Source: Escherichia phage KKE7M
Sequence record: PQ356295.1
Length of the DNA: 64,000 bases
Strand: one strand, 5' to 3'
The notes under the pieces are model-generated. The model was not told where the DNA came from and did not search any database. It worked only from the letters and a program-made list of their open reading frames with translations. Positions 1,495 to 31,673 of the stretch are shown here, piece by piece (positions within the stretch are counted from its first letter, which is position 1; every line of letters starts with the position of its first letter). The translations under genes were made by a program, and so were the position numbers.

Positions 1495-2217
1495 ATGATC
1501 GAGAATTTTTTCAAACAAGTAAAAGTGGACAATAGCTTCTTTATCAAAGCTGCCGATCAAATTGTTGCTTGGAATGCTAAGGCACGTGGTGGAGTAACTC
1601 CAGAGTTTACTCAAGAGATGTTTGAAGCTCAACTTTCTTTTGTACGAGAAGAACTTAAAGAGTTCCAAGCAGCAGCACAGGAAAATGATCACGTTGAATT
1701 ACTTGATGCAGCAGCAGATATTTTTGTGGTAGCATCCTACCTGGCGTTTATGTTCTTTGGTAAAGAAGGTGTTGATAAAGCTCTGGAAATGCCGACAGGA
1801 GATGTTCTGGCAGAAAACATCTACGATGTTATCATTGAATTTGATAAAATGGTAGAAAATGACTTGCAATTTGCCCTAATGTCTCTTACACTTACACGTA
1901 TGGCACGAGATACTTTGGTACGTTCTGTTTATAACGAGAAGAAGGTTATGCGTGAAGTGTTGAATAGCAATGAGTCCAAGTATCCTACCAAGAAGCAACT
2001 CCTGGCTATTTGGGAAACTAAGGATATTATTGAAGCTCTTGAAAAAGAATGTGATGCTATCGAGATGCGAAGCAAAGATCGTGCAGAAGGTTCTTATACT
2101 GGGGTACACGCTGTATATAACGAAGTTCAAAAGGTGTATGTATTCTTTGATGACAAAGGTAAAATTATGAAACCATCTACCTTTGTTAAACCTAATATCG
2201 CAGCAATCATTGCTTAA
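1495..2217 (+). CDS. hypothetical protein, possibly MazG-like NTP pyrophosphohydrolase (240 aa)
   Basis: RBS AAGGAG; acidic helical segment EELKEF...ELLDAAADIFVV weakly like all-alpha NTP-PPases. Confidence 0.3.
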   Translation: MIENFFKQVKVDNSFFIKAADQIVAWNAKARGGVTPEFTQEMFEAQLSFVREELKEFQAAAQENDHVELLDAAADIFVVASYLAFMFFGKEGVDKALEMPTGDVLAENIYDVIIEFDKMVENDLQFALMSLTLTRMARDTLVRSVYNEKKVMREVLNSNESKYPTKKQLLAIWETKDIIEALEKECDAIEMRSKDRAEGSYTGVHAVYNEVQKVYVFFDDKGKIMKPSTFVKPNIAAIIA

Positions 2218-12189: not shown

Positions 12190-12196
12190 TGAAACT

Positions 12197-12219
12197 AGGG
12201 GGCTTTGTCCCCCTTTCTT
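12197..12219 (+). terminator. stem-loop AGGGGGC-TTTG-TCCCCCT plus TTTCTT
   Basis: Read directly after nrdA. Confidence 0.5.
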
Positions 12220-12229
12220 AAGGAGGAAT

Positions 12230-12565
12230 ATGCCTACATTAGTTGTATTACCTGGGGCAACACCACAAAGACGCTGGGGAAATTATACACTGGTAGATAG
12301 TAAAGATTTTACATTCGATTGGTGTTGTCATTATATTGCAGGTTTTCAATTTTCCAGTGTTGAAATATGGGCTTCCAATGATCCCATAGCTACCTGGTAT
12401 GCTTTAACCAGAGCAAGGTATGAGGGAGAGGTTACTATATTACTCACAAAGAGTGTATGGGACGCATTAGAGAAGGCTTACCTAGAGGATGGTATGGAGA
12501 GAGAACACATTGATACAATAAAAGCAATGTGTGATATTGTGGAGGATTTAAATGGCAGCAATTAA
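12230..12565 (+). CDS. hypothetical protein between nrdA and nrdB (111 aa)
   Basis: ATG 12230 after AGGAGG. Confidence 0.45.
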   Translation: MPTLVVLPGATPQRRWGNYTLVDSKDFTFDWCCHYIAGFQFSSVEIWASNDPIATWYALTRARYEGEVTILLTKSVWDALEKAYLEDGMEREHIDTIKAMCDIVEDLNGSN

Positions 12566-13637
12566 CTTATACAACGACACTTACAAAGAAGGTTTCTACC
12601 CTGTATTTTTGGGAGAACAGTTAGGTATTTTTGATTCTATTAATGTAACATACCCAGAAATGCATCGTCTGTACAAACTACAAAAACAGCAAGATTGGGA
12701 TGAAAACGAAGTAAACTTAGATCAGACACGAAAAGATTTCGTAGCTTGTTCTAAAAGCAACTATGATGTTATGATCAAAAACCTATCCTTCCAATGGGAA
12801 AATGATTCACTTGCTAAATCAATCATCACTTTGTTTGCACCATTTTTAAGCAACAATGAAGCATGTGCAATGATGATGAAGCAATCAGAAATGGAAGTTT
12901 TACACGCTTTGACATATTCTGAAATTATTCGTCAGTGTATCCCTAATCCAAATGAAGTTATCGATCAGATTATGGAGAACGAAAGAATCTTCCAGAGGAT
13001 GGGTATAGTTGAAGAGATAATGAGTGATCTGGCAGAGGCAGGACATAAATATGCTCTAGGTCTGATTGAGAAGGATGATAACCTTCGTCTACTGATTCTG
13101 AAAGGAATGATTGCACTTATCGGTCTGGAAGGCATTCAATTCATATCATCTTTTGCTGCAACATTTGCCTTAGCAGAGCAGCAACTGTTTGTAGGTGCAG
13201 CTAAACTCATTCAAAAAATTATGTTGGATGAACTATTGCACGTTAAAATGGATTATGCTATTATTGATGCACTGCTGAAAGATCCTGTCTGGAGAAAAGT
13301 ATACGAAGATAATATCGACGTTCTGACAGAAATTCTTGACACGGTAGTTGGACAAGAGGAAGATTGGTGTGACTATCTGTTTAGTGAAGGAAGGATTATC
13401 GTTGGTGGTAACGCAGAGTTGTTCAAACTTTGGGTTTACTTCAATGCTGCGCCTATCTATCGCAGACTGAAAATGAAACACAAATTCCGTGCACCGAAGA
13501 AAAGTCCACTACCTTGGATGGATGTTTGGTTAAATCCAGACCAAATTCAAGCAGCAGCACAAGAGATCCAAATTACAGCTTACAAACTGAATTCAGCAAA
13601 TAAAGATGTAAGTGATGACGAGGAGTTAGACTTCTAA
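12552..13637 (+). CDS. nrdB: ribonucleotide reductase small subunit
   Basis: 361 aa; EMEVLHALTYSE and LEGIQFISSFA diiron-site motifs. Confidence 0.85.
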   Translation: MAAINLYNDTYKEGFYPVFLGEQLGIFDSINVTYPEMHRLYKLQKQQDWDENEVNLDQTRKDFVACSKSNYDVMIKNLSFQWENDSLAKSIITLFAPFLSNNEACAMMMKQSEMEVLHALTYSEIIRQCIPNPNEVIDQIMENERIFQRMGIVEEIMSDLAEAGHKYALGLIEKDDNLRLLILKGMIALIGLEGIQFISSFAATFALAEQQLFVGAAKLIQKIMLDELLHVKMDYAIIDALLKDPVWRKVYEDNIDVLTEILDTVVGQEEDWCDYLFSEGRIIVGGNAELFKLWVYFNAAPIYRRLKMKHKFRAPKKSPLPWMDVWLNPDQIQAAAQEIQITAYKLNSANKDVSDDEELDF

Positions 13638-13855
13638 TGAAACTACTTTGTGTTGGATTAATTTCTGACTTCAAAGACGTTTTCGAAAAGGGAGCCTCTT
13701 ATGAGGCTTCCGAATTACAGAATGGTTTCTGTGATGTTTACGGCAAACGTTTAAAAAAGAATGGTGATCATTGGCTAGGAGTTATGTCTTGCGGTCATAT
13801 TATAGTTAATGGTGTAGCCAAGTTTGAAATTATCAAAGGAGAAAAAGATGATTGA
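13637..13855 (+). CDS. hypothetical protein (72 aa)
   Basis: ORF overlapping nrdB stop. Confidence 0.4.
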   Translation: MKLLCVGLISDFKDVFEKGASYEASELQNGFCDVYGKRLKKNGDHWLGVMSCGHIIVNGVAKFEIIKGEKDD

Positions 13856-14030
13856 TTTTGTTGATGTAGATATTAATTCTGACTTAACAGAAGATGAAGG
13901 TGGTGCTTTTGTGTGTTCAGATGGAGAGAAATGTTTTACTCTGATGGTAGAAACTTATGATGGTATCACAGAAATTCTGTTAACAGAGAATGAGTTAAAA
14001 CAGATGTTAGAAAAGATTGAGGAGCTTTAA
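13848..14030 (+). CDS. hypothetical acidic protein (60 aa)
   Basis: ATG 13848 after AAAGGAG. Confidence 0.4.
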   Translation: MIDFVDVDINSDLTEDEGGAFVCSDGEKCFTLMVETYDGITEILLTENELKQMLEKIEEL

Positions 14031-14032
14031 TA

Positions 14033-14179
14033 ATGGACGATGTAAGTATTTGTCCTATCTGCGGCGGCACTGGGAATTTTATTGTTAGTATGGAACAATT
14101 TATTCCTTGTTGGAATTGTAACGGCTTAGGTTTCGTTCATACAGAAGAAAAAGAAGAGGAGGAAGATAGTGGGAGTTGA
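14033..14179 (+). CDS. small zinc-ribbon protein (48 aa)
   Basis: CPICGG...CWNCNG double CxxC; below ORF-track cutoff. Confidence 0.4.
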   Translation: MDDVSICPICGGTGNFIVSMEQFIPCWNCNGLGFVHTEEKEEEEDSGS

Positions 14180-14495
14180 TATTGCATGGCGTATGTTACA
14201 GGGTGCACCTTTTAATAAATGGGAAGAGGCTGTAGGAGAAGATCCTAAAATTGAAGAAGAATTTGGTGGAGATTTGAACTGGTTCTTACAAGAAGGTCTT
14301 GATTTAAGTCGTATCTCTCCTTTCTATGATGCTGATGAATCTTATTGCATATATGGCATTTATTTAGAAGGTGGCGAAGGAAGTATAGCTGTAGATCTTG
14401 AGCAACTAAATAAGAATGCAAAAGAAGCCTATGCACAACTTCTTGAAAAATATAACATTGAAACGGAAACTATTATTTCTCAACACGTTTGGTAA
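14169..14495 (+). CDS. hypothetical protein (108 aa)
   Basis: GTG start after GAGGAGG. Confidence 0.45.
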   Translation: MGVDIAWRMLQGAPFNKWEEAVGEDPKIEEEFGGDLNWFLQEGLDLSRISPFYDADESYCIYGIYLEGGEGSIAVDLEQLNKNAKEAYAQLLEKYNIETETIISQHVW

Positions 14496-14508
14496 GGAGG
14501 ATAGTAGA

Positions 14509-14706
14509 ATGATGCTAGATCAACTGATCAATGCTCCTCGCGTAACAGTAAGTCCAAAAACATTTGCATCACTTTTAGAAGATGCTAGAGAGGTTTATAA
14601 CTTTACTGAAGAAGAGCTTCCTGTTCCTGTTAAAAAAGGTTCCAGATGGTTATTTTATGAAGGTATTGTTTTTACTGAAGGGAATAATTGGAAGGAGACT
14701 AAATGA
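14509..14706 (+). CDS. hypothetical protein (65 aa)
   Basis: ATG 14509 after AAGGAGG. Confidence 0.4.
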   Translation: MMLDQLINAPRVTVSPKTFASLLEDAREVYNFTEEELPVPVKKGSRWLFYEGIVFTEGNNWKETK

Positions 14707-15692
14707 AATACTTAGTAACAGGTGGTTTAGGCTTTATTGGAAGTGCGGTAGTTCGTTTCCTGGCTAAAAACACTAAGAATGATATTTACGTTATAGATAA
14801 ATGGGGTTACGCTTCAGACCCTAGAAATTTATCAGAAACACCTAATGTAAAGTTTTGTCGTGTTGACTTGACAAATGCTCAGTTAACTGCTAAGATTGTG
14901 GCAGATGTTAATCCAGATTATATAATGCATCTTGCAGCAGAAAGTCACGTAGATAATTCAATAGCATCACCGAGTGTTTTTATAAATTCAAATATTGTTG
15001 GAACATTTAATCTTCTAGAAGCTGTTCGTTTAATGGGAGATAAATCAAATCTTAAAATGTTTCATCATATTTCAACAGATGAAGTGTATGGTGATATGGA
15101 AGAAGGGGATTATCCGTTTACAGAACAGAATCCTTATAAGCCAAGTAGTCCATATGCTGCATCTAAGGCAGCAAGCGATCATTTGGTAAGAGCGTGGCAT
15201 CGTACTTATGGTATTCCAACAGTTATAACAAATTGTTCAAATAATTTTGGAGCGTATCATCATCCAGAAAAACTAATACCTAAAACGATAACAAATATCT
15301 TGATGCATAAACCAATCCCTGTTTATGGCAATGGTCTTCAAGTAAGAGATTGGTTATACGTTGACGATCACGCAGAAGCATTACACCTAGTAGTAACTAA
15401 AGGCAAATCTGGAGAAACATATAATATTGGGAGCAGAAACCCTAGAACTAATATTGATGTAATCTATATGATTTGTGATTATATGGATGCGGTGTATCCA
15501 TCTGAAACAGATGCTTGTAGCCTCATTGAGATGGTTACAGATAGACCTGGACATGATTTAAGATACGAAGTGAATCCTTATAAGATTGAAAAGGAATTAG
15601 GGTGGAAAGCTAAAGGCACATTTGAAGAAAAACTTTATTCAACCATTGATTGGTATGTAGATAACAAAGAGTGGTGGGAAAATAAAGTTTAA
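14703..15692 (+). CDS. rmlB: dTDP-glucose 4,6-dehydratase
   Basis: TGGLGFIGS Rossmann motif, YAASKAASD catalytic Yxxx[10 protein letters not shown]. Confidence 0.9.
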
Positions 15693-17136: not shown

Positions 17137-17963
17137 CAAAATTTTTAGTCTTTGGTTCAAAAGGTCAATTAGGACAGTCTTTGGCAAAAGTTGCGCCAGA
17201 AGATGTTATTTTGATTGAAGCAAGTGATGTAGACATTACCAACTTTAAAGATGTTATGGATAGTCTTGTACAACATATGCCTGATGTTGTTGTGAATTGT
17301 GCGGCTTACACGGCAGTAGATAAAGCGGAAGAAGATGTTAACACCTGTATAAATGTTAATGCATACGGTGCAACAAACATTGCCAAAGCATGTAATGATT
17401 TACTGATACAGTTTGTACATATTTCAACAGATTATGTTTTTGATGGGAATGTTGCTGGCACAGAAGATAGTAAAACAAACCCCTTGAACATCTACGGTTA
17501 CAGTAAACAATTAGGTGAAACTTTAGTACAAACAGTTTGTCCTACAGCACTTATTATCAGAACAGCTTCTGTTTATAGTGAATTTGGACATAACTTTTTG
17601 AAAACTATGTTGGAACGCTACAACGGTGGTCAAAAAGAATTTAATGTAGTGTGTGATCATTTATCATGTCCTACTTATGCACCTGATCTTGCAGAAACAA
17701 TTTTTAAACTTGTAAAAGATGGTGTAAATAGTAAAATTGTACACTATGCAGGTGCAGATTATATTTCTTGGTATGATTTTGCACGAAAGATATTTCTTGT
17801 TATAGATTTATCTGTTACAGTTAATCCTGTATCTGCTTCAACCTATAATTCAAAAGCAGTCAGACCAGCAACATCTTATTTAAAAACAGATCCTACTTTA
17901 AATCCGCGAAGTGTTGATAGCGGTATTGTAAGAACTTTAACTATACTTTTAAACAAGGAGTGA
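17133..17963 (+). CDS. rmlD: dTDP-4-dehydrorhamnose reductase
   Basis: TTG start overlapping rmlC stop; FGSKGQLGQ Rossmann motif; operon context. Confidence 0.85.
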   Translation: MTKFLVFGSKGQLGQSLAKVAPEDVILIEASDVDITNFKDVMDSLVQHMPDVVVNCAAYTAVDKAEEDVNTCINVNAYGATNIAKACNDLLIQFVHISTDYVFDGNVAGTEDSKTNPLNIYGYSKQLGETLVQTVCPTALIIRTASVYSEFGHNFLKTMLERYNGGQKEFNVVCDHLSCPTYAPDLAETIFKLVKDGVNSKIVHYAGADYISWYDFARKIFLVIDLSVTVNPVSASTYNSKAVRPATSYLKTDPTLNPRSVDSGIVRTLTILLNKE

Positions 17964-17965
17964 AA

Positions 17966-18226
17966 ATGAATTTTATTATCTACGGTAAACCAAATTGTCC
18001 TTTCTGCACTAACGCTAAGATTCTACTGGAACAGCGTGAACAGGATTTTAAATACCTTACCTTAGATGAAGACTATTCTTTAGATCAGATTCAGAATCTG
18101 GTTTTAGAGAAAACAGGTGTTCTACCACGCACATTTCCTCAGATTTTTGTGGAAGATGGTGAACAGCTAACCCACGTAGGAGGTTTTTCTGAACTACGTG
18201 AATTCATGGCTCAGATTGCGGAGTAA
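17966..18226 (+). CDS. glutaredoxin/thioredoxin-fold protein (NrdC/NrdH-like)
   Basis: CPFC active site in IYGKPNCPFCTNAK; ~87 aa. Confidence 0.8.
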   Translation: MNFIIYGKPNCPFCTNAKILLEQREQDFKYLTLDEDYSLDQIQNLVLEKTGVLPRTFPQIFVEDGEQLTHVGGFSELREFMAQIAE

Positions 18227-18230
18227 CAAT

Positions 18231-18374
18231 ATGAAAGGTAAACAGAAACGTAAGATCTTTTCTCGTGCTTTGGCAACAGAGCTTAAGTCCCAAACTAAAA
18301 AGACGAAGCCTAAACGTGAAATGTCTCCTGAACACCTACTGTTTCAAGAGCTAGATCATGGGGAGGGCGACTAA
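18231..18374 (+). CDS. small basic protein (47 aa)
   Basis: ATG 18231; Lys/Arg-rich; short. Confidence 0.3.
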   Translation: MKGKQKRKIFSRALATELKSQTKKTKPKREMSPEHLLFQELDHGEGD

Positions 18375-18386
18375 TATAAGGAAAAC

Positions 18387-18887
18387 ATGGCTAAAGTAGT
18401 TGATGTGTTTGATATGTTACGTTTTGATGAAGGACTAAAGCTAACTGTATACACTGATACCGAAGGGTATTGGACAGTTGGTATTGGACACCTTCTGACA
18501 AAACTCAAAGATAAAGCAGAAGCTATACGCATTCTTGATAACTTAGTAGGTAGAAAAACCAATGGGGTTATTACTGAAGCGGAGGCTAGAAAAATCTTTG
18601 AGGGTGACGTAAAGAAAGCGATACAACAAATCCATTCAAGTACCATATTATCTCCTATTTACGATAAAGTAAGTCCTAATCGTAAAATGGCTATTATCAA
18701 TATGGTATTTCAAATGGGGTTGAAAGGTGCAGAATCTTTCAAAAATAGCTTGACTTTAGTGAGTAATTCATATTATACTCAAGCCTCTATAAATTTACGT
18801 AAAAGTAAATGGTATCGCCAAACGCCTAATCGCGCAGAGCGTGTAATTCAGGTGCTTAAAACTGGAACATTAGACGCTTATAACTAA
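18387..18887 (+). CDS. e: T4-type lysozyme (endolysin)
   Basis: Near-collinear match to T4 lysozyme recalled from memory: MLRFDEGLKLTVYTDTEGYWTVGIGHLLTK ... INMVFQMG ... WYRQTPNRAERVI. Confidence 0.95.
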   Translation: MAKVVDVFDMLRFDEGLKLTVYTDTEGYWTVGIGHLLTKLKDKAEAIRILDNLVGRKTNGVITEAEARKIFEGDVKKAIQQIHSSTILSPIYDKVSPNRKMAIINMVFQMGLKGAESFKNSLTLVSNSYYTQASINLRKSKWYRQTPNRAERVIQVLKTGTLDAYN

Positions 18888-18890
18888 ACA

Positions 18891-18910
18891 AAGGGGCGAA
18901 AGCCCCTTTT
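18891..18910 (+). terminator. rho-independent terminator
   Basis: AAAGGGGC-GAA-AGCCCCTTTT. Confidence 0.6.
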
Positions 18911-18925
18911 ATAAGGAGTGCAAAC

Positions 18926-19678
18926 ATGGGAAATAAAACCGCAAAGGCTCGTCGTCAATCAGCAGCCAATGATGACAAACGTGCCAGTCGTTATGCGGCT
19001 AAAGCAGTAGGAAATGATGATTACCGTCTTGATGAATTTACCCCTATTGGGAATCAAGAAGCTATTGTAAGAAGCATGGTTTGGAATGACTTAACCATTG
19101 TTAATGCCCCAGCAGGAACAGGAAAAACAACAACAGCACTATGGAAAGCATTGCAAATGCTTAAAGCTGGTGACTTCAGAAAGTTGATTTTCCTTAAAAA
19201 CCCGACAGAAGTAGGTGATGATCAAATTGGTTTCTTATCTGGAGATAAGACTGATAAACTAGCAGCACACTATGAATCAACTAAAAGAATTTTCCAACAG
19301 TTTATGACTGCAAATAAATTGGAAAACGATATTGCAAGTGGCAAAATTGAACTTAATATTCCAAACTATGCACTAGGTGCTACGTGGGATAACAGCATTA
19401 TTCTTATTGATGAAGTTCAACTTATGTCACCAAATACAGTAAAACTTCTCCTTGAGCGAGCAGGTCTTAATACACGTATTGTCATTATGGGCGATGTTAA
19501 TCAAACATATGCAATTAAACGAAGAGCTAATGGGTTAGGTGATTTGTTAGATCGTGTTGTTCCTATTAACGAAGAAGGAGAAAGGGAAGCTATTGTAGAT
19601 TTTATTGGTTATGTTGAAATGACAACTGCTGATAACCAACGTTCCCGTTTGTCTCAGTTCATCACGGAAGTATATTAA
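18926..19678 (+). CDS. phoH: PhoH-like ATPase
   Basis: Walker A NAPAGTGKTTTA, Walker B ILIDEVQ. Confidence 0.9.
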   Translation: MGNKTAKARRQSAANDDKRASRYAAKAVGNDDYRLDEFTPIGNQEAIVRSMVWNDLTIVNAPAGTGKTTTALWKALQMLKAGDFRKLIFLKNPTEVGDDQIGFLSGDKTDKLAAHYESTKRIFQQFMTANKLENDIASGKIELNIPNYALGATWDNSIILIDEVQLMSPNTVKLLLERAGLNTRIVIMGDVNQTYAIKRRANGLGDLLDRVVPINEEGEREAIVDFIGYVEMTTADNQRSRLSQFITEVY

Positions 19679-19714
19679 TAATTACAAGGCAAGGATGCCT
19701 ATTATGGAGGTTAA

Positions 19715-20206
19715 ATGACGCTAATTGAGATTGATCGCAATGGTATTGATGAATGCTATCAAGCTGGCTTAGTTAAGCCGAATGAGTTTAGACAGATTTA
19801 TATTGACAAGATTGAAAAAGAAATATCTCTTCGTTTAGAGAACATGACAACTTTGCAAAAAGTTCAGATGTTTTTTAGTTGGTTGAAAGGGGAGGATTGG
19901 CTAACTAAATATTACCAGGAATTATCTGATAGTCAAGAAGGCTTGTTTGAGTGTATAATAAATGTAGCTGGGTCTAATTCAGAATTACTCCTGATCGATG
20001 AAGAAGATTGTAAACTTCTTTTTCTTAGCAGCATCTTTCACAAGAAATCTATGTTAGTAAGAAATTGCAGTGATTTACTAAATCATCCACTAACAAGAAC
20101 TAATAAAATTCTTGTGGATAAAGAAACACTAAGAGCTATTGATTACCTCCGTAAATATGTAAGCGGTGGTAAAGCAGTCCTTAAAACACTACAGGAGGAA
20201 GTATAA
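19715..20206 (+). CDS. hypothetical protein (163 aa)
   Basis: ORF; stop overlaps next start. Confidence 0.5.
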   Translation: MTLIEIDRNGIDECYQAGLVKPNEFRQIYIDKIEKEISLRLENMTTLQKVQMFFSWLKGEDWLTKYYQELSDSQEGLFECIINVAGSNSELLLIDEEDCKLLFLSSIFHKKSMLVRNCSDLLNHPLTRTNKILVDKETLRAIDYLRKYVSGGKAVLKTLQEEV

Positions 20207-20859
20207 TGACAACAATTATTGCAACACGTAACAAAATTCTGTCTGACGGTAAGGTAACAGTAGGTAGTCGTGTAGACACTTTAAATTTCAAGAAAGTGCG
20301 TAAAATTGGGGACTACCTTGTTGGTGGTGCAGGACGTCTGTCTTCTATCCTGACTTTCTTTTCTTGGTTTGAACAAAACTTACAATGCCAGGCAGCACAA
20401 GAGACAATCCCAGGTTTGGTGATCCAGTCAGATCCCGATAAAGAAGATGAAGAGTTTGTGGCATTGGTTGTTCACCCAGACGGTAAAATTTATATGCACG
20501 AGGGTAATAATCCAACTCGAGCATATCCTTTAACTGAAGATTATTATGCAGTTGGTAGTGGGGCAGATTTTGCTTTAGCAGCTTTAGATGCTGGGGCAAC
20601 CCCGGAAGAAGCGATGGAAGTTGCAAAACTACGAGATGCTTTTTCAGGTGGTGAAACTTTTGTCGAAGAGATCGAAGAACAACTGGAGTTAACAGCGGAA
20701 GATATTCTGAACTTCAGCAAGGAGCAACTAATTAGTATGCTGTTGACTGGTGATCCTGATAGTGATGAAGCTGAAAGTATTTTAGCAGAAATGAAAGAAT
20801 CACAAGAAAAAGTATTGACAGTCTCTGAAAAACTTGATAAAGTATCCTCTGATAATTAA
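20206..20859 (+). CDS. HslV-like Ntn-hydrolase peptidase with acidic C-terminal tail (217 aa)
   Basis: N-terminal MTTII (Thr after Met), GGAGRLSS and YAVGSGADFALAALDAGAT glycine-rich segments like HslV. Confidence 0.45.
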   Translation: MTTIIATRNKILSDGKVTVGSRVDTLNFKKVRKIGDYLVGGAGRLSSILTFFSWFEQNLQCQAAQETIPGLVIQSDPDKEDEEFVALVVHPDGKIYMHEGNNPTRAYPLTEDYYAVGSGADFALAALDAGATPEEAMEVAKLRDAFSGGETFVEEIEEQLELTAEDILNFSKEQLISMLLTGDPDSDEAESILAEMKESQEKVLTVSEKLDKVSSDN

Positions 20860-20868
20860 TCTATCATA

Positions 20869-20888
20869 AACCCCCTCAAGGGGGTTAT
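20869..20888 (+). terminator. stem-loop AACCCCC-TCAA-GGGGGTT
   Basis: Read directly; weak T tract. Confidence 0.4.
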
Positions 20889-20899
20889 TAGGAGGAGAT

Positions 20900-21328
20900 A
20901 TGTTACCAGTACCTGTAATATTTGTAGAAAAAGCCTACTACTCTTTAGAACAAAACTGTAAAAGAGCTAAAAATTTTATTGAAAGTTTAGCAGAACAACG
21001 TTACACTGTATCTAAAAAGGGATGGTTTAGAAATTCACAATATTTAGTCAACCCTTTCGGAGAAGTTCGTGTGTTGTACGGCAACACAGAAAACATCTTA
21101 GAAAGAATGTTAGAACTAGATAGGATCTCCTCCTGTGATTATCAACTGTTGAAATTTTACGATGTGTCAGAAAACATTAAAAACTTTCTTGACGATTTGT
21201 CTAAACGAAAAACAGAAGAAGATACAATACCAGTATCTATGGAAGAATTAACGTTCTTAAGAGATATTATGGTTTTTGAAGAAAACCCTGAAATTACAAA
21301 AGAGGAGATTTTAAGTAGTGGCAAATAA
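20900..21328 (+). CDS. hypothetical protein (142 aa)
   Basis: ORF with AGGAGG RBS. Confidence 0.5.
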   Translation: MLPVPVIFVEKAYYSLEQNCKRAKNFIESLAEQRYTVSKKGWFRNSQYLVNPFGEVRVLYGNTENILERMLELDRISSCDYQLLKFYDVSENIKNFLDDLSKRKTEEDTIPVSMEELTFLRDIMVFEENPEITKEEILSSGK

Positions 21329-21827
21329 GTATGATCGTCCACCAACTGATTACTATCCTACTCCACAAAAATGTATAAATGCATTATTTAGTGTAATAGA
21401 TTTTAATAACCTTAAAGAAGAAGGTTTTATTTTTGCAGAACCGTGTAAAGGCGCTGCTGCTGCAATTTATCAACATTTTCCAGAAGGATCAGAATATTGT
21501 GAGTTAGAAGAAGGGAAGGATTATTTTAACCACGAATGGCATACTAAGCCGGATATTATAATCACAAATCCACCATTCAGACTTGCACTTGAGTTCTTGC
21601 AAAAGAGCTTAAAAGAAGCAGACGTTTGCATATACTTGTTGCGTCTTGGGTTCCTAGAGTCTATTAAACGAAGGGAATTCCATAAACAGAATCCACCAAC
21701 AAATTTGATTGTTCTCTCTGAACGACCATCTTTTGTTGCAGGTGGCACTGACAAGACAGCATATGCTTGGTACGTCTACGACCCAAAAAACAGGCTGGGT
21801 TTAACTCAACCTTTCTATTTTGTTTAA
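21318..21827 (+). CDS. minimal SAM-dependent methyltransferase-like protein (169 aa)
   Basis: YYPTP...FAEPCKGAAAA...DIIITNPPF resembles gamma-class amino-MTase motifs X, I, IV; no target-recognition domain. Confidence 0.4.
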   Translation: MANKYDRPPTDYYPTPQKCINALFSVIDFNNLKEEGFIFAEPCKGAAAAIYQHFPEGSEYCELEEGKDYFNHEWHTKPDIIITNPPFRLALEFLQKSLKEADVCIYLLRLGFLESIKRREFHKQNPPTNLIVLSERPSFVAGGTDKTAYAWYVYDPKNRLGLTQPFYFV

Positions 21828-21840
21828 GAGGAGCATTTTT

Positions 21841-22071
21841 ATGACCGAGAAATTTATTGTTACTATGGAACTCACCTTTGATGAAGAAGATTTTGATCTT
21901 CACGTATCAACTAAAGCAGATAACATTCACACAACACAGAGTGTTGCAATCGCTATGTTCTTTAAACAAGCAATTGCAAAACAAGCTGAAGTGTGTGCTG
22001 GTTTAGCTGTAGAGTATGCAGAAGTTGTCAAGGTTCTTGAAAATGCTCGTAACAACGATTGGGAAGAATAA
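21841..22071 (+). CDS. hypothetical protein (76 aa)
   Basis: ATG 21841 after AGAGGAG. Confidence 0.4.
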   Translation: MTEKFIVTMELTFDEEDFDLHVSTKADNIHTTQSVAIAMFFKQAIAKQAEVCAGLAVEYAEVVKVLENARNNDWEE

Positions 22072-22274
22072 TGGCATACAATTACTATCTGGTATATTTT
22101 AACGAAACTAAGAAAAAAGACACAGGGACTAATGTTTATGCGGAATCCGAAGAACACGCAAAAGCTATTGGTTCAGTGCTTCTTTCTAGAATAGCAGGTG
22201 AAGAAATTCCTGTAGAAGCTATCTTTGCAGAAGTTGATCCTGGTATTCAAGAAGATGATATTACCACTACTTAA
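22071..22274 (+). CDS. hypothetical protein (67 aa)
   Basis: ATG 22071 overlapping upstream stop. Confidence 0.4.
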   Translation: MAYNYYLVYFNETKKKDTGTNVYAESEEHAKAIGSVLLSRIAGEEIPVEAIFAEVDPGIQEDDITTT

Positions 22275-22331
22275 CTGTTGACTTTAACGTTAAGGTAGTG
22301 CATACTTCCTGTAACAGAACAGGAGGGTATT

Positions 22332-22994
22332 ATGAAGTTTGTACTGTATCATCGACTTTCTAAGAAGAAACAACAAGGCAACCAGTATGGTATAGAATCA
22401 CAGGAAGCAGATATCCAACGCTTCCTGGATTCACAAGAAAATTATACTATTGTAGGTAGCTTTGCAGAGTTTTATTCTGGTAAAGGCGATTGGAAGCAAC
22501 GTAGAGAGCTTGTAAAAGCTGTTAATCTTTGCAAAGAAACAGGTGCTACACTTGTTGTTGCTAAGGTTGACCGTCTTGGACGTAACACAGCTTCTGTTGC
22601 AACCTTGTTAGAGATGATTAATGTACGAATAGCAACGATGCCCTCCGCTGAAAATATGATAATAAATATTTTAGCAGTTCTGGCAGAAGAAGAGGCTCGT
22701 GCAATATCGGATCGTGTTAAGAAGAGCCTTAAGGTAGCAAAAGCGAAGGGAACGCTTCTTGGTGCAGCAAACCCTAAATACAAAAGAACAGATTATACGA
22801 AAACGGAAGAAGCAAAACGCTCAAAAGAGTTTGCGCTTTCTTTAAAAGATTCTTTAGTTGCATACAGGGCTTGTAAAACGCCATATATGACGATTGCAAA
22901 GCATCTGAATGAATCAGGAAAGAGAACTATTCGTGGGAGTTTGTTCGATGCCAAAGCGGTACAACGTCTTTGTGCAAAATTGAATATTAAATAA
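22332..22994 (+). CDS. small serine recombinase (resolvase/invertase family)
   Basis: YHRLSKKKQQ...ESQ catalytic Ser region, LVVAKVDRLGRN motif, C-terminal HTH-like segment. Confidence 0.65.
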   Translation: MKFVLYHRLSKKKQQGNQYGIESQEADIQRFLDSQENYTIVGSFAEFYSGKGDWKQRRELVKAVNLCKETGATLVVAKVDRLGRNTASVATLLEMINVRIATMPSAENMIINILAVLAEEEARAISDRVKKSLKVAKAKGTLLGAANPKYKRTDYTKTEEAKRSKEFALSLKDSLVAYRACKTPYMTIAKHLNESGKRTIRGSLFDAKAVQRLCAKLNIK

Positions 22995-26541: not shown

Positions 26542-26565
26542 TAAACCCGCTTCGGCGGGTTTTTT
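26542..26565 (+). terminator. rho-independent terminator (AAACCCGC-TTCG-GCGGGTTTTTTG)
   Basis: Perfect hairpin with T tract; same hairpin family recurs at 31648 and 58113. Confidence 0.7.
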
Positions 26566-26621: not shown

Positions 26622-27035
26622 ATGTACTATAGTGACTATTTTGTAAACCCAACAAAAGAACAACTTCAATCGGCAGTGGATAAGATGCAGATTGTAGTTA
26701 AAGAATGTGAGAAAATAAGAAAACAACTACAAGAAGAAACTGTTGTTGTTAATAAATGGTTTGGTCTTAGAAAGAAGGTTGTTAGTAAACACAATATCAT
26801 CCTTGAAAAAGCAAAAACGACAGGGACTAGTTACGCCTTACAAGGCTTGTTGCTAAATTACATTGATATAGAACAACATTCTCTTCTGCACTGTTGGCTT
26901 CACAGTCCTAGTATTGAGGATCTCTTGTTCTGGTTGTCGTGTGAATCTGTACTTTTAAACGAAAATGAGGCTTACCGTTTAAACTTCTGCCTTAAGGCAG
27001 AGTTACCAGCTAGTGTTAAGGAGAAGAAGCAATAA
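26622..27035 (+). CDS. hypothetical protein (137 aa)
   Basis: ORF with GAGGAG RBS. Confidence 0.5.
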   Translation: MYYSDYFVNPTKEQLQSAVDKMQIVVKECEKIRKQLQEETVVVNKWFGLRKKVVSKHNIILEKAKTTGTSYALQGLLLNYIDIEQHSLLHCWLHSPSIEDLLFWLSCESVLLNENEAYRLNFCLKAELPASVKEKKQ

Positions 27036-28024
27036 TGAAAGTTTTAAGTCTTTTTGATGGTATGTCAGGAGGAATGCTTGCACTAAAAAGCGCAGGTATT
27101 GAAGTAGATAAGTATTATGCCTCAGAATTGGACAAATTTGCCATAGCTGAAAGCCAAGCCAATTTTCCAGATATTATTCAATTAGGTGATGTTACAAAAT
27201 GGAGAGAATGGGATATCCCGTGGGGAGAAATTGATCTTTTGTTAGGTGGTAGCCCGTGCCAAGGCTTCTCTTCTTCTGGTAAGGGTTTGAACTTTCAAGA
27301 TCCGCGATCTAAACTGTTCTTTGAATATGTTGAAATTCTTGAACATATTAAAAAGTTTAACCCTAATGTTAAGTTCATGCTTGAAAACGTTAAGATGAAG
27401 GTGGAGTGGGAAAACGTGATCACAAGTTACTTAGGTGTTGATCCCGTATTCATTAACTCCGCAGATTTCACGGCACAGAATAGGCAACGTTTATACTGGT
27501 GCAATTGGGAAATAAAACCTTGGGATATTACCAATGAAGTGTTGCAAGATATCATTGAAGATGATAGTATCGTAGACAGAGATAAGGCTTATTGCATAGA
27601 TGCAAATTATGCCAAAGGTGGTAATATAGAACAGTATTTTGAAAAGAGTCGCAGACAACTGGTTTTTTATCCGGCAGCAATATATGGGCGTAGAATTAAT
27701 GAAAATGGCAAACGTAGTACATCTAAAACTGATCGTTTGGTACATTGTTTGGAAGTTCAGGACAGTGAAAAAACTCGTTGCCTCACGACTGTGCCTAAAG
27801 ACGTACTACTAGCTTACATTCCACCTGGAAGATATCTAGATGCCTTTGAAAAATTGAGTGAAGGCGTACATTATAGAAAGTTAACGGTTAAAGAGTGTTG
27901 CCGCTTACAAGGTGTTCCAGATGATTACTTTAAAGTGAGTAGTAACACACAAGCATATAAGATGTTAGGCAATGGTTGGACTATACCTGTCATTGCGCAT
28001 ATTCTTAAATCTATGGAGGAATAA
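27035..28024 (+). CDS. DNA cytosine-5 methyltransferase
   Basis: LSLFDGMSGG (motif I), GGSPCQGFS (PCQ motif IV), ENV (motif VI), C-terminal LGNGWTIPVI. Confidence 0.85.
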   Translation: MKVLSLFDGMSGGMLALKSAGIEVDKYYASELDKFAIAESQANFPDIIQLGDVTKWREWDIPWGEIDLLLGGSPCQGFSSSGKGLNFQDPRSKLFFEYVEILEHIKKFNPNVKFMLENVKMKVEWENVITSYLGVDPVFINSADFTAQNRQRLYWCNWEIKPWDITNEVLQDIIEDDSIVDRDKAYCIDANYAKGGNIEQYFEKSRRQLVFYPAAIYGRRINENGKRSTSKTDRLVHCLEVQDSEKTRCLTTVPKDVLLAYIPPGRYLDAFEKLSEGVHYRKLTVKECCRLQGVPDDYFKVSSNTQAYKMLGNGWTIPVIAHILKSMEE

Positions 28025-28147: not shown

Positions 28148-28759
28148 ATGACTCAAAAAGTTGCATATCAAGTAGATCGTGAAGATGGTGAAGGTAGCGT
28201 TGTAGTTTTTGATACACATGGTCTTGCAGCAAGACGCAGAGGCGCTTGTCTATTGGACATTGGTGGTGAAGATGAATACTGCACTGTACGTAGAGTAAAA
28301 GAATTTGATCAATACGCTGAAAAAGGTTTTGTACCTGCAAAAGCACTATTAGAAGCTGGATGGTGGATACCTAGTGCACATGATTATGATATTTTGGAAT
28401 CAGATACAGACGAGTTTAACAGTGAAAATTTTGTTTTCTCTCTGGATGAAAAATGCGTTTGGAAAGATTGGGATGAAATGGAACGCCATGCTTATTTTAT
28501 AAACGAAGCATTAGATCGTAAAACTTGGTTTGAAAATACAGTTAAAGCAGCGTATCCTCAATTTACTTTTACAGAGTTTTGGGGTGGCCCACACCATATT
28601 ACTCATGTGGCATACTTCGAGTTCCCAGGCTCACGCTATAAAGGTACTGTCTACTGGGATTGGGACGAGGACAAAGAACCTTCTGCTCAAGACTTCCGTT
28701 GCTATGTTTGTCAAGGTGATCAAGAAGCCCTTGACAAGTACCTTAAAAGTCTGGTATAA
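28148..28759 (+). CDS. hypothetical protein (203 aa)
   Basis: ORF. Confidence 0.5.
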   Translation: MTQKVAYQVDREDGEGSVVVFDTHGLAARRRGACLLDIGGEDEYCTVRRVKEFDQYAEKGFVPAKALLEAGWWIPSAHDYDILESDTDEFNSENFVFSLDEKCVWKDWDEMERHAYFINEALDRKTWFENTVKAAYPQFTFTEFWGGPHHITHVAYFEFPGSRYKGTVYWDWDEDKEPSAQDFRCYVCQGDQEALDKYLKSLV

Positions 28760-28775
28760 TCCGTAAAACTTAACC

Positions 28776-28800
28776 AAAGCCCCAAGCAGGGGCTTTATTT
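28776..28800 (+). terminator. rho-independent terminator
   Basis: AAAGCCCC-AAGCA-GGGGCTTTATTT. Confidence 0.6.
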
Positions 28801-28813
28801 GTCTGGAGGATAT

Positions 28814-29347
28814 ATGGGTTTTGATGACATGTTATTATATGAGGAGGCTTGTGTGAAAGAAGCTATGGCTTTACCAGTTTTATCTATTGATATTACAACA
28901 GTAGACACTTTTTCAGATTGTGAAACGTGTGGATCGTATTCATCTATTGTACATGAAGTCAGTGGGGATTTAGGCACTTACGAAGATGGAGATTATGCAA
29001 GTTGTTTAGGTGATAATCGAGATGGTGAAGTGGCGAATGTTGCAAACTGGATCGCTTCTAAGTTAAAAGAAAGAAATCGTCCGTTCCCTAATCTTCTTAC
29101 ACCAGAATCTATGCTTAAAGCTGAACAAGAGATGGATGACTATGGTTATAAAGTAGATTATGACTATAATGATCCTACTTATAAAAAATTGAGTGACAAG
29201 TATTGGGAACTAGCTAATGCTTATGATAAATACTACTCTACAGAAAACATTGTTAAATTATTTTTAGATTTTGGAGTAGAAATTAATTGGGATTTCGAAG
29301 AGGAAGAGCGTTACGATGCATCTTATTGGGAGGACGAGGGTGAATGA
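28814..29347 (+). CDS. hypothetical acidic protein (177 aa)
   Basis: ATG 28814 after GGAGGA. Confidence 0.5.
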   Translation: MGFDDMLLYEEACVKEAMALPVLSIDITTVDTFSDCETCGSYSSIVHEVSGDLGTYEDGDYASCLGDNRDGEVANVANWIASKLKERNRPFPNLLTPESMLKAEQEMDDYGYKVDYDYNDPTYKKLSDKYWELANAYDKYYSTENIVKLFLDFGVEINWDFEEEERYDASYWEDEGE

Positions 29348-30084
29348 TAGAACGAAAACCCTTACCAGATAGAGATTACTTGTTATCAAGGTTTAGTGTG
29401 GAGAATGGTCGTCTTGTTTGGAAACCTAAACCTTCTACAACAAAAGAGAACAAAAGGTGGAATAGCAGATACGCAGGGAAGATTGCAGGGACTATTGATA
29501 AAGTTGGTTACTCTCATGTCAAAATAGATGGTATTGTATATTTGGAGCACAGAATTTGTTTTAAAATGTATCATAATTACTGTCCAGATGTTATAGACCA
29601 TGACGACGGCAATAAACTTAATAATGCGGAAAGTAATTTATTGGATAGTAACTATTTATTAAATAATAACAATAGACACGTAGATGGGTTAGAAGGTATT
29701 TATGAAAAGGATGGTGTTTTTCTTTGGGTTATAAACTACAACCAAGAAACTTTCTCTGTTTCAGGTTTCAAAACTAAAGAGGAAGCTACTGTAGCTAGAG
29801 CTTTAGCAAAACAAGAAATTTTGAAAGGATCTTATATCAAAAAAGAAAAGAAGCGTATAGATAACACTTCAGGATTAAGTTGTGTGTTTGTGGCAACAAG
29901 AGAGAGAACATTCTTTTTCAAGTTTGTGTTTGACAAGACCGCTTATTGCAAATATGGTTTCAACGATCCAGAGAGATGTGCTATAGCTCTGGAGAAGTTA
30001 AGGTTGAAGGTGATGAAAGAAAAATATAAACCTGCAAATAAAAGCATTTGCGAAAAATATAAGGAGGAGATTTATGCCGCGTAG
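29344..30084 (+). CDS. HNH endonuclease-like protein (HNH_3-type, 246 aa)
   Basis: GYSHVKIDG...LEHRI...VIDHDDGNKLNNAESNL pattern. Confidence 0.5.
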   Translation: MIERKPLPDRDYLLSRFSVENGRLVWKPKPSTTKENKRWNSRYAGKIAGTIDKVGYSHVKIDGIVYLEHRICFKMYHNYCPDVIDHDDGNKLNNAESNLLDSNYLLNNNNRHVDGLEGIYEKDGVFLWVINYNQETFSVSGFKTKEEATVARALAKQEILKGSYIKKEKKRIDNTSGLSCVFVATRERTFFFKFVFDKTAYCKYGFNDPERCAIALEKLRLKVMKEKYKPANKSICEKYKEEIYAA

Positions 30085-30889
30085 AGTCATATTCATAACT
30101 GGCGCAGGACTATCTGTGGATAGCGGTATCCCAGCTTTTAGAACAGATACTTCTTCAGGGGAGGCGTTATGGTCTTCTTATGATCTTTCTGAGGTCTGTG
30201 ACATTTTCAACTTCCGTGATGGTTATCAGCAAGAACAAGGTGTTCTTGATGCTATGGGTGGTTTAGATGCGGAAGGATATAACCTCTACCGTAAAACTCA
30301 CGACTTTTACAATAAACGTCGCGTGGAATTAGCGAAAGTTGACCCGAATCCAGCACATCTTCAGATTGGAGAATGGTTCAAAAAATATGGCCCAGAACGA
30401 ATTCTTAACATTACTACTAACGTGGATGACCTCCTTGAACGAGCAGGAGTAAATAGGGAAGAAGTGCTACATGTGCACGGTTTTCTTCCTGAAATTACTT
30501 TTCAAAGAAAAGCTGGACAACCTACAATTGTAAAAGATGTTGGTTATCAAGCCATAGATGTAGATGACTACCATTATGTAAAACCTAATGTAATTTTCTT
30601 TGGAGAAGCTGCTCCACTTTACACAGATATGTATCATATTCTTGATACACTAACGGCTCAAGATATGGTTGTAGTAGTAGGATGTTCAAACCAAGTTATC
30701 AATTTTAATTGGGAATTATTCCCTGCACTTAATATGGGTACAAAAATGATCGTTGTTAACCCAGGAATTAATTACGAAGAAACTCTTCTTTACGAAGATA
30801 GAGGAGTCTTTGTTTATCGAGAAAAGGCCGCAGATGCTTTTAGCAATCCTGCTTTCATAAAAATGATAGAAGATCATTTGACTAAATAA
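30074..30889 (+). CDS. SIR2-family (sirtuin-like) protein lacking zinc-binding cysteines
   Basis: GAGLSVDSGIPAFR, NPAH, TTNVDDLLERAG, HVHG, VIFFGE, VVVGCS, VVNPGIN match sirtuin motifs; no CxxC...CxxC module. Confidence 0.75.
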   Translation: MPRRVIFITGAGLSVDSGIPAFRTDTSSGEALWSSYDLSEVCDIFNFRDGYQQEQGVLDAMGGLDAEGYNLYRKTHDFYNKRRVELAKVDPNPAHLQIGEWFKKYGPERILNITTNVDDLLERAGVNREEVLHVHGFLPEITFQRKAGQPTIVKDVGYQAIDVDDYHYVKPNVIFFGEAAPLYTDMYHILDTLTAQDMVVVVGCSNQVINFNWELFPALNMGTKMIVVNPGINYEETLLYEDRGVFVYREKAADAFSNPAFIKMIEDHLTK

Positions 30890-30896
30890 CTTAACC

Positions 30897-30920
30897 AAGG
30901 GGGCGAAAGCCCCTTTTCTT
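30897..30920 (+). terminator. rho-independent terminator
   Basis: AAGGGGGC-GAA-AGCCCCTTTTCTT. Confidence 0.65.
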
Positions 30921-30933
30921 ATAGGAGAATATT

Positions 30934-31191
30934 ATGACCACAGAACAAATCGTTAAAGACCATTTTATGATGCACTACGTTTATTACTTCAATAATAATC
31001 AGCAGAAAGGTGAGGGATTTTGTTATCTATCCGCACAACAAGGTTTTGGTATCCGTCAAGCAGATATTAACGGGGCAGTAGCTGGGATTACAAAAGGCTT
31101 GGTTGCAAACCTTAAAGATAATGTTGTTGTTGTCCCAACGTGCATTTCTTATCTCTCAACCTGTCCTGAAGAAGATTTTATGCATTCCTAA
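30934..31191 (+). CDS. hypothetical protein (85 aa)
   Basis: ORF with AGGAGA RBS. Confidence 0.45.
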   Translation: MTTEQIVKDHFMMHYVYYFNNNQQKGEGFCYLSAQQGFGIRQADINGAVAGITKGLVANLKDNVVVVPTCISYLSTCPEEDFMHS

Positions 31192-31257: not shown

Positions 31258-31293
31258 AAAAGCCCCTAGAAGCGATTCTAGGGGCTTTATTTT
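31258..31293. terminator. bidirectional terminator at convergence of plus and minus gene blocks
   Basis: AGCCCCTAGAA-GCG-ATTCTAGGGGCT hairpin flanked by A and T tracts. Confidence 0.65.
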
Positions 31294-31647: not shown

Positions 31648-31667
31648 AAAACCCGCCGAAGCGGGTT
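31648..31667 (-). terminator. terminator hairpin AAACCCGC-CGAA-GCGGGTTT
   Basis: Downstream of minus gene ending 31674; T tract on minus strand. Confidence 0.55.
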
Positions 31668-31673
31668 TATGCG

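Follow-up and report, generated by a model that had tools for sequence, protein, structure and literature searches.

The question raised by a short + strand block of Escherichia phage KKE7M is what a phage-borne member of the SIR2 family, lacking the zinc-binding cysteines of other sirtuins, would do with nicotinamide adenine dinucleotide (NAD+). The gene, sir2, lies at 30074-30889 of the 64,000-nucleotide (nt) stretch of sequence record PQ356295.1 that was analysed here (the window; coordinates refer to it unless another genome is named). A sequence-only reading of this DNA had taken the product for a zinc-less SIR2-family protein, co-transcribed with an HNH endonuclease and possibly an NADase, an ADP-ribosyltransferase acting on the host or a counter-defence enzyme. 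Our analysis points to a classical, class-III-like sirtuin of a phage-specific branch, for which NAD+-dependent lysine deacylation is tentatively preferred as the function, and to a homing endonuclease gene inserted next to it.

A predicted sirtuin with a complete set of active-site motifs

The sir2 gene and the parts of it on which the argument turns are the following (aa, amino acids; pI, isoelectric point).

30074..30889, + strand: sirtuin gene sir2, homologue of phi92 gp038 / muut_83 (271 aa, pI 4.9)
30101..30142, + strand: NAD-binding motif GAGLSVDSGIPAFR, aa 10-23, counterpart of GAGISAESGIPTFR in Sir2Af2 and CobB
30413..30427, + strand: TTNVD, aa 114-118, aligned with TQNID with Gln changed to Thr; N116 and D118 invariant in 73 homologues
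30476..30478, + strand: catalytic His135 of HG, aligned with the catalytic His of CobB and Sir2Af2
30482..30595, + strand: small-domain ribbon, aa 137-174, with no Cys in its 38 aa and with F143 and K146 at the positions of the first CxxC

The open reading frame (ORF) starts with ATG, with the ribosome-binding site AGGAGGAG upstream. All of the sirtuin NAD-binding and catalytic motifs listed in the sequence-only reading were found, those beyond the NAD-binding motif being NPAH (aa 92-95), TTNVDDL (aa 114-120), HG (aa 135-136), FFGE (aa 175-178) and VVNPG (aa 227-231). Across the 73 homologues, S14, S17, F22 and R23 of the NAD-binding motif were invariant, as was the Y79-x-x-R82 pair, which is the counterpart of FYNARR in CobB; His135 was invariant in every family representative (144/144). 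The class-III hallmarks GLW and FY-x-x-RR were also present. Sir2 matched the Pfam family SIR2 (PF02146; E=1.5e-20 and 74.3 bits, where 24 is the gathering score) and, over its full length (aa 2-270), PHROG 2162 ‘Sir2 (NAD-dependent deacetylase)’ (E=2.6e-99), and because of these scores the similarity to sirtuins is beyond chance. The ratio of nonsynonymous to synonymous substitution rates (dN/dS) of sir2 was 0.10-0.20 in comparisons with four relatives, and the gene is under purifying selection. By its motif content, sir2 is a real, intact sirtuin gene with the complete conserved set of active-site motifs.

Fold and placement among sirtuins

An AlphaFold2 model of Sir2 built from the 73 homologues had a predicted local distance difference test score (pLDDT) of 90.1 and a predicted template modelling score (pTM) of 0.88, and the sole poorly modelled stretch was residues 24-31, which are taken to be the cofactor-binding loop. 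The NAD site showed no disruption and was intact by alignment, by conservation in homologues and in the model. The best solved relatives found by sequence search were Sir2Af2, E. coli CobB and SIRT5, and the best 50 Foldseek matches in the PDB were all deacylase sirtuins, with CobB first (E~3e-16). Against defence SIR2 profiles, no PADLOC family was matched at E<=0.1, SIR2_2 was not matched, and PF02146 was the sole Pfam match at E<=0.1. No sensor or partner of the SLOG, HerA, pAgo, STAND or TIR kind was fused or adjacent to Sir2, which is a single-domain protein whose gene neighbours encode an ORFan, the HNH protein and an 85-aa ORFan. Placement by profile and structure (PF02146, PHROG 2162, best 50 Foldseek matches) thus gave a SIR2 protein, as the sequence-only reading had it, of the deacylase type and not of the defence type to which that reading had likened it. 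Judged by alignment and model, Sir2 falls within a large branch of the classical sirtuins (class-III-like, CobB/SIRT5 type) that is specific to phages, and it is an ordinary member of that branch.

This placement bears on the idea that Sir2 is an NADase, or a mono-ADP-ribosyltransferase of proteins or nucleic acids, that drains or diverts NAD+ in host takeover or counter-defence. The intact NAD site is consistent with such an enzyme, ADP-ribosyltransferase side activity is known in some classical sirtuins (PMC9503650, PMC4518038), and the gene stands in a promoter-proximal block, consistent with early expression. The resemblance of Sir2 is to protein deacylases, not to anti-phage NADases (PADLOC, Pfam, Foldseek), and the idea is without specific support; we consider it quite unlikely. 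In phage muut, the regions 12026-14724 and 17619-22912, which fall outside the window, carry, together with the RNA ligase cluster described below, a 577-aa enzyme of the NAPRTase/NAMPT family and a ribose-phosphate pyrophosphokinase (Prs) beside a 15-tRNA cluster. NAD-salvage genes of this kind in close relatives could offset NAD+ use by an NADase or ADP-ribosyltransferase, and they are compatible with any NAD-consuming role.

The small-domain ribbon without zinc ligands

Sir2 has only two cysteines, C42 and C204, and none among the 38 residues that separate HG from FFGE. The Cys4 zinc module had been described as absent from this interval. The four ligand cysteines are indeed lost, but the ribbon itself is kept: its 38 aa compare with 39-42 aa in zinc-bearing relatives with CxxC...CxxC, and in the AlphaFold2 model it forms three strands (136-144, 152-155 and 168-173) with pLDDT 94-96. 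A substitute metal site within the ribbon was considered and rejected, as H167 and the acidic run are not conserved.

The loss is shared by the close relatives of Sir2. Among 121 close homologues, the ribbon contained 0-1 Cys. In a homologue search of 1.84 billion representatives clustered at 50% identity, the ~30 nearest clusters were zinc-less, and from E~1e-29 outward many relatives had CxxC...CxxC. A neighbour-joining tree of 144 representatives placed 42 zinc-less sequences and 3 partial ones in one clade around the query, and only two changes of zinc state were needed on the whole tree. Cysteines aside, the motifs of the zinc-less and zinc-bearing groups were nearly identical, with T for Q in TQNID and G(C/S)S for GTS as the differences; position 115 was T in 69% of zinc-less clusters and Q in 83% of zinc-bearing clusters. 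According to the alignments and the model, the ribbon of the small domain is retained, its four zinc ligands are lost, and this trait is common to the whole clade. A loss of this kind was reported in 2016 for the Sir2/CobB finger domain in KVP40 and the KVP40-like Vibrio phages phi-Grn1 and phi-St2 (PMC5107563). For the zinc-bearing sister P0149, the gene context consisted only of contigs of <=4 kb with unannotated neighbours, and a literature search on zinc-less cellular sirtuins returned nothing usable.

A separate feature of the ribbon is an (I/V)GY motif in its middle (query aa 155-158, DVGY), with G in 61-86% and Y in 45-73% of sequences, in zinc-less and zinc-bearing members. The motif is absent from CobB and may be a family-specific substrate-contact element.

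Lysine deacylation weighed against RNA repair

We tentatively read Sir2 as an NAD+-dependent lysine deacylase, with somewhat less than even confidence. Homology makes deacylation the default chemistry, together with the FGE loop, the YxxR pair and a catalytic set that is complete. Sir2 would bind NAD+, the carbonyl oxygen of an acyl-lysine in a host or phage protein would attack C1' of the nicotinamide ribose, and nicotinamide would leave; H135 would then activate a ribose hydroxyl, and the intermediate would be resolved into deacylated lysine and O-acyl-ADP-ribose. Removal of acidic acyl groups (succinyl or malonyl type) besides acetyl is suggested by the invariant YxxR pair, and with its acidic surface (pI 4.9) Sir2 may act on basic proteins. 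Close relatives encode a NAMPT-family enzyme and Prs, through which the nicotinamide set free could be recycled, and the HNH gene would share the sir2 transcript, not the function of Sir2. That a phage Sir2 deacetylates host proteins, in connection with a phage NAMPT, has been proposed in silico (PMC5107563). What we infer here covers the substrate, the expression timing and the biological role of Sir2.

Several observations weigh against deacylation. The Gln of TQNID is Thr in Sir2; the proline of V-x-P in the peptide-binding loop is replaced, and the replacing sequence, VINFNW, is invariant in close homologues; and a lineage-specific insert of ~25 aa follows the cofactor loop. Scores were far below all NCBIfam equivalog cut-offs (95.6 bits against 243 for NF001753, and 81.3 against 320 for NF040867 CobB), and orthology to the host CobB was therefore rejected. 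In the literature search, phage sirtuins of this family were found in genomic or in-silico treatments only, with no biochemical or genetic work. The remaining observations concern gene order in relatives. In rV5, three genes that follow one another on one strand encode RNA_lig_T4_1 (6.2e-15), cREC_REC (3.1e-15) and, as the third, Sir2, and in the T5-like phage AKFV33 an RNA-repair domain, HAD_SAK_2 (2.4e-20), is encoded three genes downstream of Sir2. The rV5-like operon and the T5-like HAD neighbour point to an RNA rather than a protein substrate.

Such a substrate has been proposed before. Iyer, Burroughs and Aravind (2022) predicted a Tpt1/KptA-like role from gene neighbourhoods in phages of the V5, Mydo, SP15 and Serratia BF types (PMC9503650), and their prediction covers exactly this clade. 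The zinc-less phage sirtuins would then be sirtuin-fold analogues of Tpt1/KptA that remove RNA 2'-phosphates with NAD+; the 2'-phosphate would be that which stays behind, at an RNA junction or end, once a break with a 2',3'-cyclic phosphate has been healed, as in a tRNA cut by a host anticodon nuclease, and its oxygen would attack C1', with nicotinamide leaving. Divergent from the ligase-cREC-Sir2 genes, rV5 has a P-loop kinase and a calcineurin-like phosphoesterase, with tRNA genes nearby, and an RNA ligase, kinase and phosphoesterase set is also encoded by relatives of the window. The two-step chemistry would be in keeping with the catalytic His, which is retained, and with the invariant anion-binding pair Y79/R82, and the clade-specific changes (VINFNW for VYP, Q to T, zinc loss and the insert) keep a Tpt1-like model alive.

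However, in the phi92-like lineage sir2 stands outside the RNA-repair cluster, the nearest such genes in the window and in muut being ~28-32 kb upstream, and within 6 kb of sir2 in the window a calcineurin-like phosphoesterase is the only gene of an RNA-end-processing type. cREC was not detected in the RNA ligase-kinase-phosphoesterase cluster of muut, which lies ~30 kb upstream of sir2, and at the Moazamivirus and KVP40-like loci the annotation shows no RNA-repair gene within 5 kb. The sirtuin family is acidic throughout (pI 4.9; median 4.94), which is unusual for an RNA-binding enzyme, and no sirtuin is known to act on RNA, no experiment having been found in the literature search. On balance we regard RNA 2'-phosphate removal as somewhat unlikely and retain lysine deacylation as the tentative function of Sir2. 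The muut cluster itself, outside the window, combines a weak calcineurin-like phosphoesterase match with genes for RNA ligase, P-loop kinase, DNA ligase and a MazG-like protein; the MazG-like gene has its counterpart at window 1495-2217.

A putative homing endonuclease gene and a mosaic sir2

Two further features concern the 5' side of sir2.

29344..30084, + strand: putative free-standing HNH homing endonuclease gene, 741 nt, 246 aa, pI 9.2, between gp039 and sir2 (PHROG 99, E=6e-33)
29326..30670, no strand assigned: mobile or co-converted tract, HNH and the first ~600 nt of sir2 (boundaries +/-50 nt)

The sequence-only reading had noted that the start of sir2 overlaps the end of the upstream HNH ORF; the overlap was borne out and measures 11 nt. 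The HNH motif is visible as DHDDGNKLNN...NL, with a match to Pfam HNH_3 (E=1.7e-4, 21.6 bits) under the cut-off of 24.8. The gene was found in 8 records representing 6 phages (BME3, muut, KKP_3264, nepoznato, DIJ07P2 and ECML-183-2), whereas related phage genomes bearing the sir2 locus number ~100. Its copies are 97.6-98.5% identical across two genera with far more diverged flanks, and they always lie directly upstream of sir2. Phage phi92 and Klebsiella phage ZCKP1 lack the HNH gene, and there gp039 directly overlaps (as in phi92) or abuts sir2.

Alignment with phi92 placed the end of identity at 29331 and its return at 30561, and window 29326-30826 was 94.7% identical to nepoznato, a Phapecoctavirus. 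In 100-nt bins, nt 1-600 of sir2 were 90-100% identical to nepoznato and 54-68% to phi92, whereas nt 601-816 were 98-100% identical to phi92 and 63-74% to nepoznato. Because of the sporadic presence, the near-identical copies and the mosaic junction inside sir2, the HNH gene is read as a homing endonuclease gene; on this comparative evidence it is a selfish element inserted at the gp039/sir2 junction and not a functional partner. It would have been inserted at that junction carrying the 5' two-thirds of sir2 along.

A two-component pair, in which nuclease and NAD-consuming enzyme act together, would be in keeping with the 11-nt overlap and the common transcription unit. The co-transcription proposed in the sequence-only reading is upheld in so far as the two genes share a transcription unit; it is uninformative on what Sir2 does. 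Given that HNH is missing beside the sir2 of phi92, ZCKP1 and hundreds of other phages, and that near-identity of HNH across genera with diverged flanks and a junction within sir2 is the signature of a homing endonuclease, we find the pair scarcely credible, and HNH as a partner was rejected on distribution and mosaicism. In its own right the HNH/sir2 mosaic is of interest as a natural case in which homing-endonuclease co-conversion between two genera of phages can be seen cleanly.

Architecture of the locus

The remaining features of the block are listed below.

28731..28760, + strand: promoter-like site TTGACA-18-TATAAT, 12/12, with TG (consensus pattern match only)
28814..29347, + strand: gp039 homologue, acidic 177-aa ORFan, pI 4.05 (PHROG 9509, unknown function)
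30897..30915, + strand: short, weak GC hairpin downstream of sir2, its T tract also weak (pattern match only)
30934..31191, + strand: 85-aa gp037 homologue, with which the block ends (PHROG 15991, unknown function, E=4e-52)
31259..31288, + strand: strong terminator-like hairpin with a 13 bp stem, closing the + strand block (pattern scan)

The gp039-HNH-sir2-gp037 block forms the end of a long + strand region of nucleotide metabolism and modification, which upstream includes ribonucleotide reductase, thymidylate synthase, dTDP-rhamnose synthesis, PhoH, the calcineurin-like phosphoesterase and two DNA methyltransferases. Beyond the hairpin at 31259..31288, convergent - strand genes follow. Downstream of sir2, gp037 is kept in phi92, muut, nepoznato and ZCKP1.

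The gp039 product fell into only 4 protein clusters among 5.8 billion sequences and is confined to Stephanstirmvirinae. Its cysteines C13, C36xxC39 and C64 are invariant and may form a zinc site. The AlphaFold2 model of gp039 had a pLDDT of 80 and gave no significant PDB fold match (best E=0.05). The designation ‘putative aminoacyl-tRNA synthetase’ in some GenBank records is unsupported, since the Pfam match to PheRS_B1 reached only E=0.039 with no fold match. That gp039 supplies the zinc module in trans is very unlikely, zinc-less sirtuins being widespread without gp039.

The sigma-70 consensus promoter at 28731-28760 overlaps the end of the gp041 homologue and is followed, <=16 nt further on, by a terminator-like hairpin at 28776-28796 ahead of gp039, a promoter-then-hairpin arrangement (28731-28796) that could be attenuating. 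A second promoter-like site, TTGACA-17-TATGGT (10/12, consensus match only), was found at 29930-29958 inside the 3' end of HNH, ~115 nt upstream of sir2, and might drive sir2 independently of HNH translation. A 20-nt GC hairpin, AAACCCGCTTCGGCGGGTTT, occurs twice, at 26543-26562 (+) and 31649-31668 (-); it is terminator-like, the first copy scoring on both strands, and has the look of a terminator cassette used twice, on either side of the region. This lytic myophage genome also encodes a full-length C5-cytosine DNA methyltransferase (27035-28024, Pfam E=1e-43) and a protein with a resolvase/invertase N-terminal domain (22332-22994, E=8.4e-22).

Distribution, annotation status and significance

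Over the 2.3 kb around sir2, identity is 97-98% with phages BME3 and muut of Escherichia and KKP_3264 of Serratia, and the region matches ~100 phi92-like genomes of Stephanstirmvirinae, genera Justusliebigvirus and Phapecoctavirus. By tblastn, homologues were found in 983 of 50,697 phage records (~2%), including phi92-like, rV5-like, T5-like, Moazamivirus, KVP40-like and jumbo phages. A scan of 185,579 prokaryotic species genomes with two exact peptide patterns, which covers close relatives only, detected no close cellular relative.

Some public labels in the family deserve comment. Sir2 homologues of Pectobacterium phage DU_PP_V and Klebsiella phage vB_Kpn_3 (53-60% identity) are labelled ‘tail assembly protein’. 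In AKFV33 (NC_017969.1, 6129-6635), orf108 is named ‘Sir2 (NAD-dependent deacetylase)’ in RefSeq but matches the RNA-repair phosphatase HAD_SAK_2 in Pfam (E=2.4e-20); the label is probably an annotation error spread from the PHROG name. Further, an rV5-type Sir2 with 48% identity, the same value as in E. coli rV5 phages, is present in 25 records that go by the name Campylobacter phage (one is MG065690.1 ‘Campylobacter phage A135’, 143 kb), some of which match window DNA at 60-80%; the host labels or classification of these records may be questionable.

The sequence-only reading was correct in what it observed, and its interpretation is supported in part only. The gene is already known, because it is annotated in near-identical public genomes; as a feature it also has a PHROG family, a description of zinc-ligand loss from 2016 and a functional hypothesis from 2022. 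As a finding, therefore, sir2 matters little, having been annotated and described. The interest lies in the biochemistry of a widespread clade, as ~2% of phage records keep an intact, predicted NAD-consuming sirtuin and the gene is under purifying selection. Depending on whether Tpt1-like repair or deacylation proves right, sirtuin chemistry would reach as far as RNA, or phages would turn out to rewrite host acylation; if RNA repair were true, Tpt1 chemistry would have been reinvented by convergence, in a sirtuin that would be the first to act on RNA.

Comparison with known systems

Compared with the class III deacylases (CobB, Sir2Af1, SIRT5 and P. falciparum Sir2A), phage Sir2 shows 20-26% identity and differs by having no Cys4 zinc site, by Gln to Thr in TQNID, by VINFNW in place of the VYP loop, by the extra insert of ~25 aa and by its acidic pI. 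With the defence SIR2 NADases (ThsA, DSR1/2, SIR2-HerA/Nezha, SPARSA, Avs5 and KomC) it has in common the sirtuin-type Rossmann fold, the catalytic Asn and His and the want of a zinc ribbon. Class M sirtuins (SirTM), which are ADP-ribosyltransferases, have QG for HG, keep the zinc domain and are macrodomain-linked (PMC4518038); identity with them was rejected, as HG is invariant in Sir2, the zinc ligands are lost and a macrodomain gene was not found in the operon. For Tpt1/KptA, an NAD+-dependent two-step transfer has been described in which the ADP-ribosylated intermediate is resolved by the ribose 2''-OH (PMC9503650; PMC6097658). Tpt1/KptA belongs to the ADP-ribosyltransferase (ART) superfamily, with a fold unrelated to the sirtuin/Rossmann fold of Sir2, so that any likeness would be a functional analogy at most.

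Among phage proteins, gp038 of phi92, annotated as a predicted Sir2-like fold, occupies the same locus with gp039 upstream and gp037 downstream, is zinc-less and shares 71% aa identity with Sir2. The BME3 protein annotated as ‘NAD-dependent histone deacetylase’ is 97.8% identical in aa sequence, and the orthologues in BME3 and muut (muut_83) are likewise zinc-less. In comparison with phi92, the alleles of the window, muut, BME3 and KKP_3264 carry the HNH insertion and Phapecoctavirus-like 5' two-thirds of sir2. The KVP40-like Sir2/CobB proteins of phi-Grn1 and phi-St2 (Straboviridae) belong to the same phage sirtuin family (36-40% identity by tblastn) and have likewise lost the zinc ligands, but they are shorter and have other neighbours than Sir2 of the window. 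The RNA-repair-associated sirtuins of rV5-like, Mydo-like and T5-like phages fall in the same clade as Sir2 of the window, the rV5-like and T5-like members with 48-60% identity. In the rV5-like and T5-like phages the sirtuin lies beside RNA ligase/cREC or HAD_SAK, whereas in the window sir2 lies among lineage-specific ORFans in a nucleotide-metabolism region.

Large lytic phages carry free-standing homing endonuclease genes, among them the seg/mob type of T4. Intergenic insertion, sporadic distribution, near-identical copies and flank co-conversion are shared between the T4 genes and the HNH gene of the window, a putative homing endonuclease gene.

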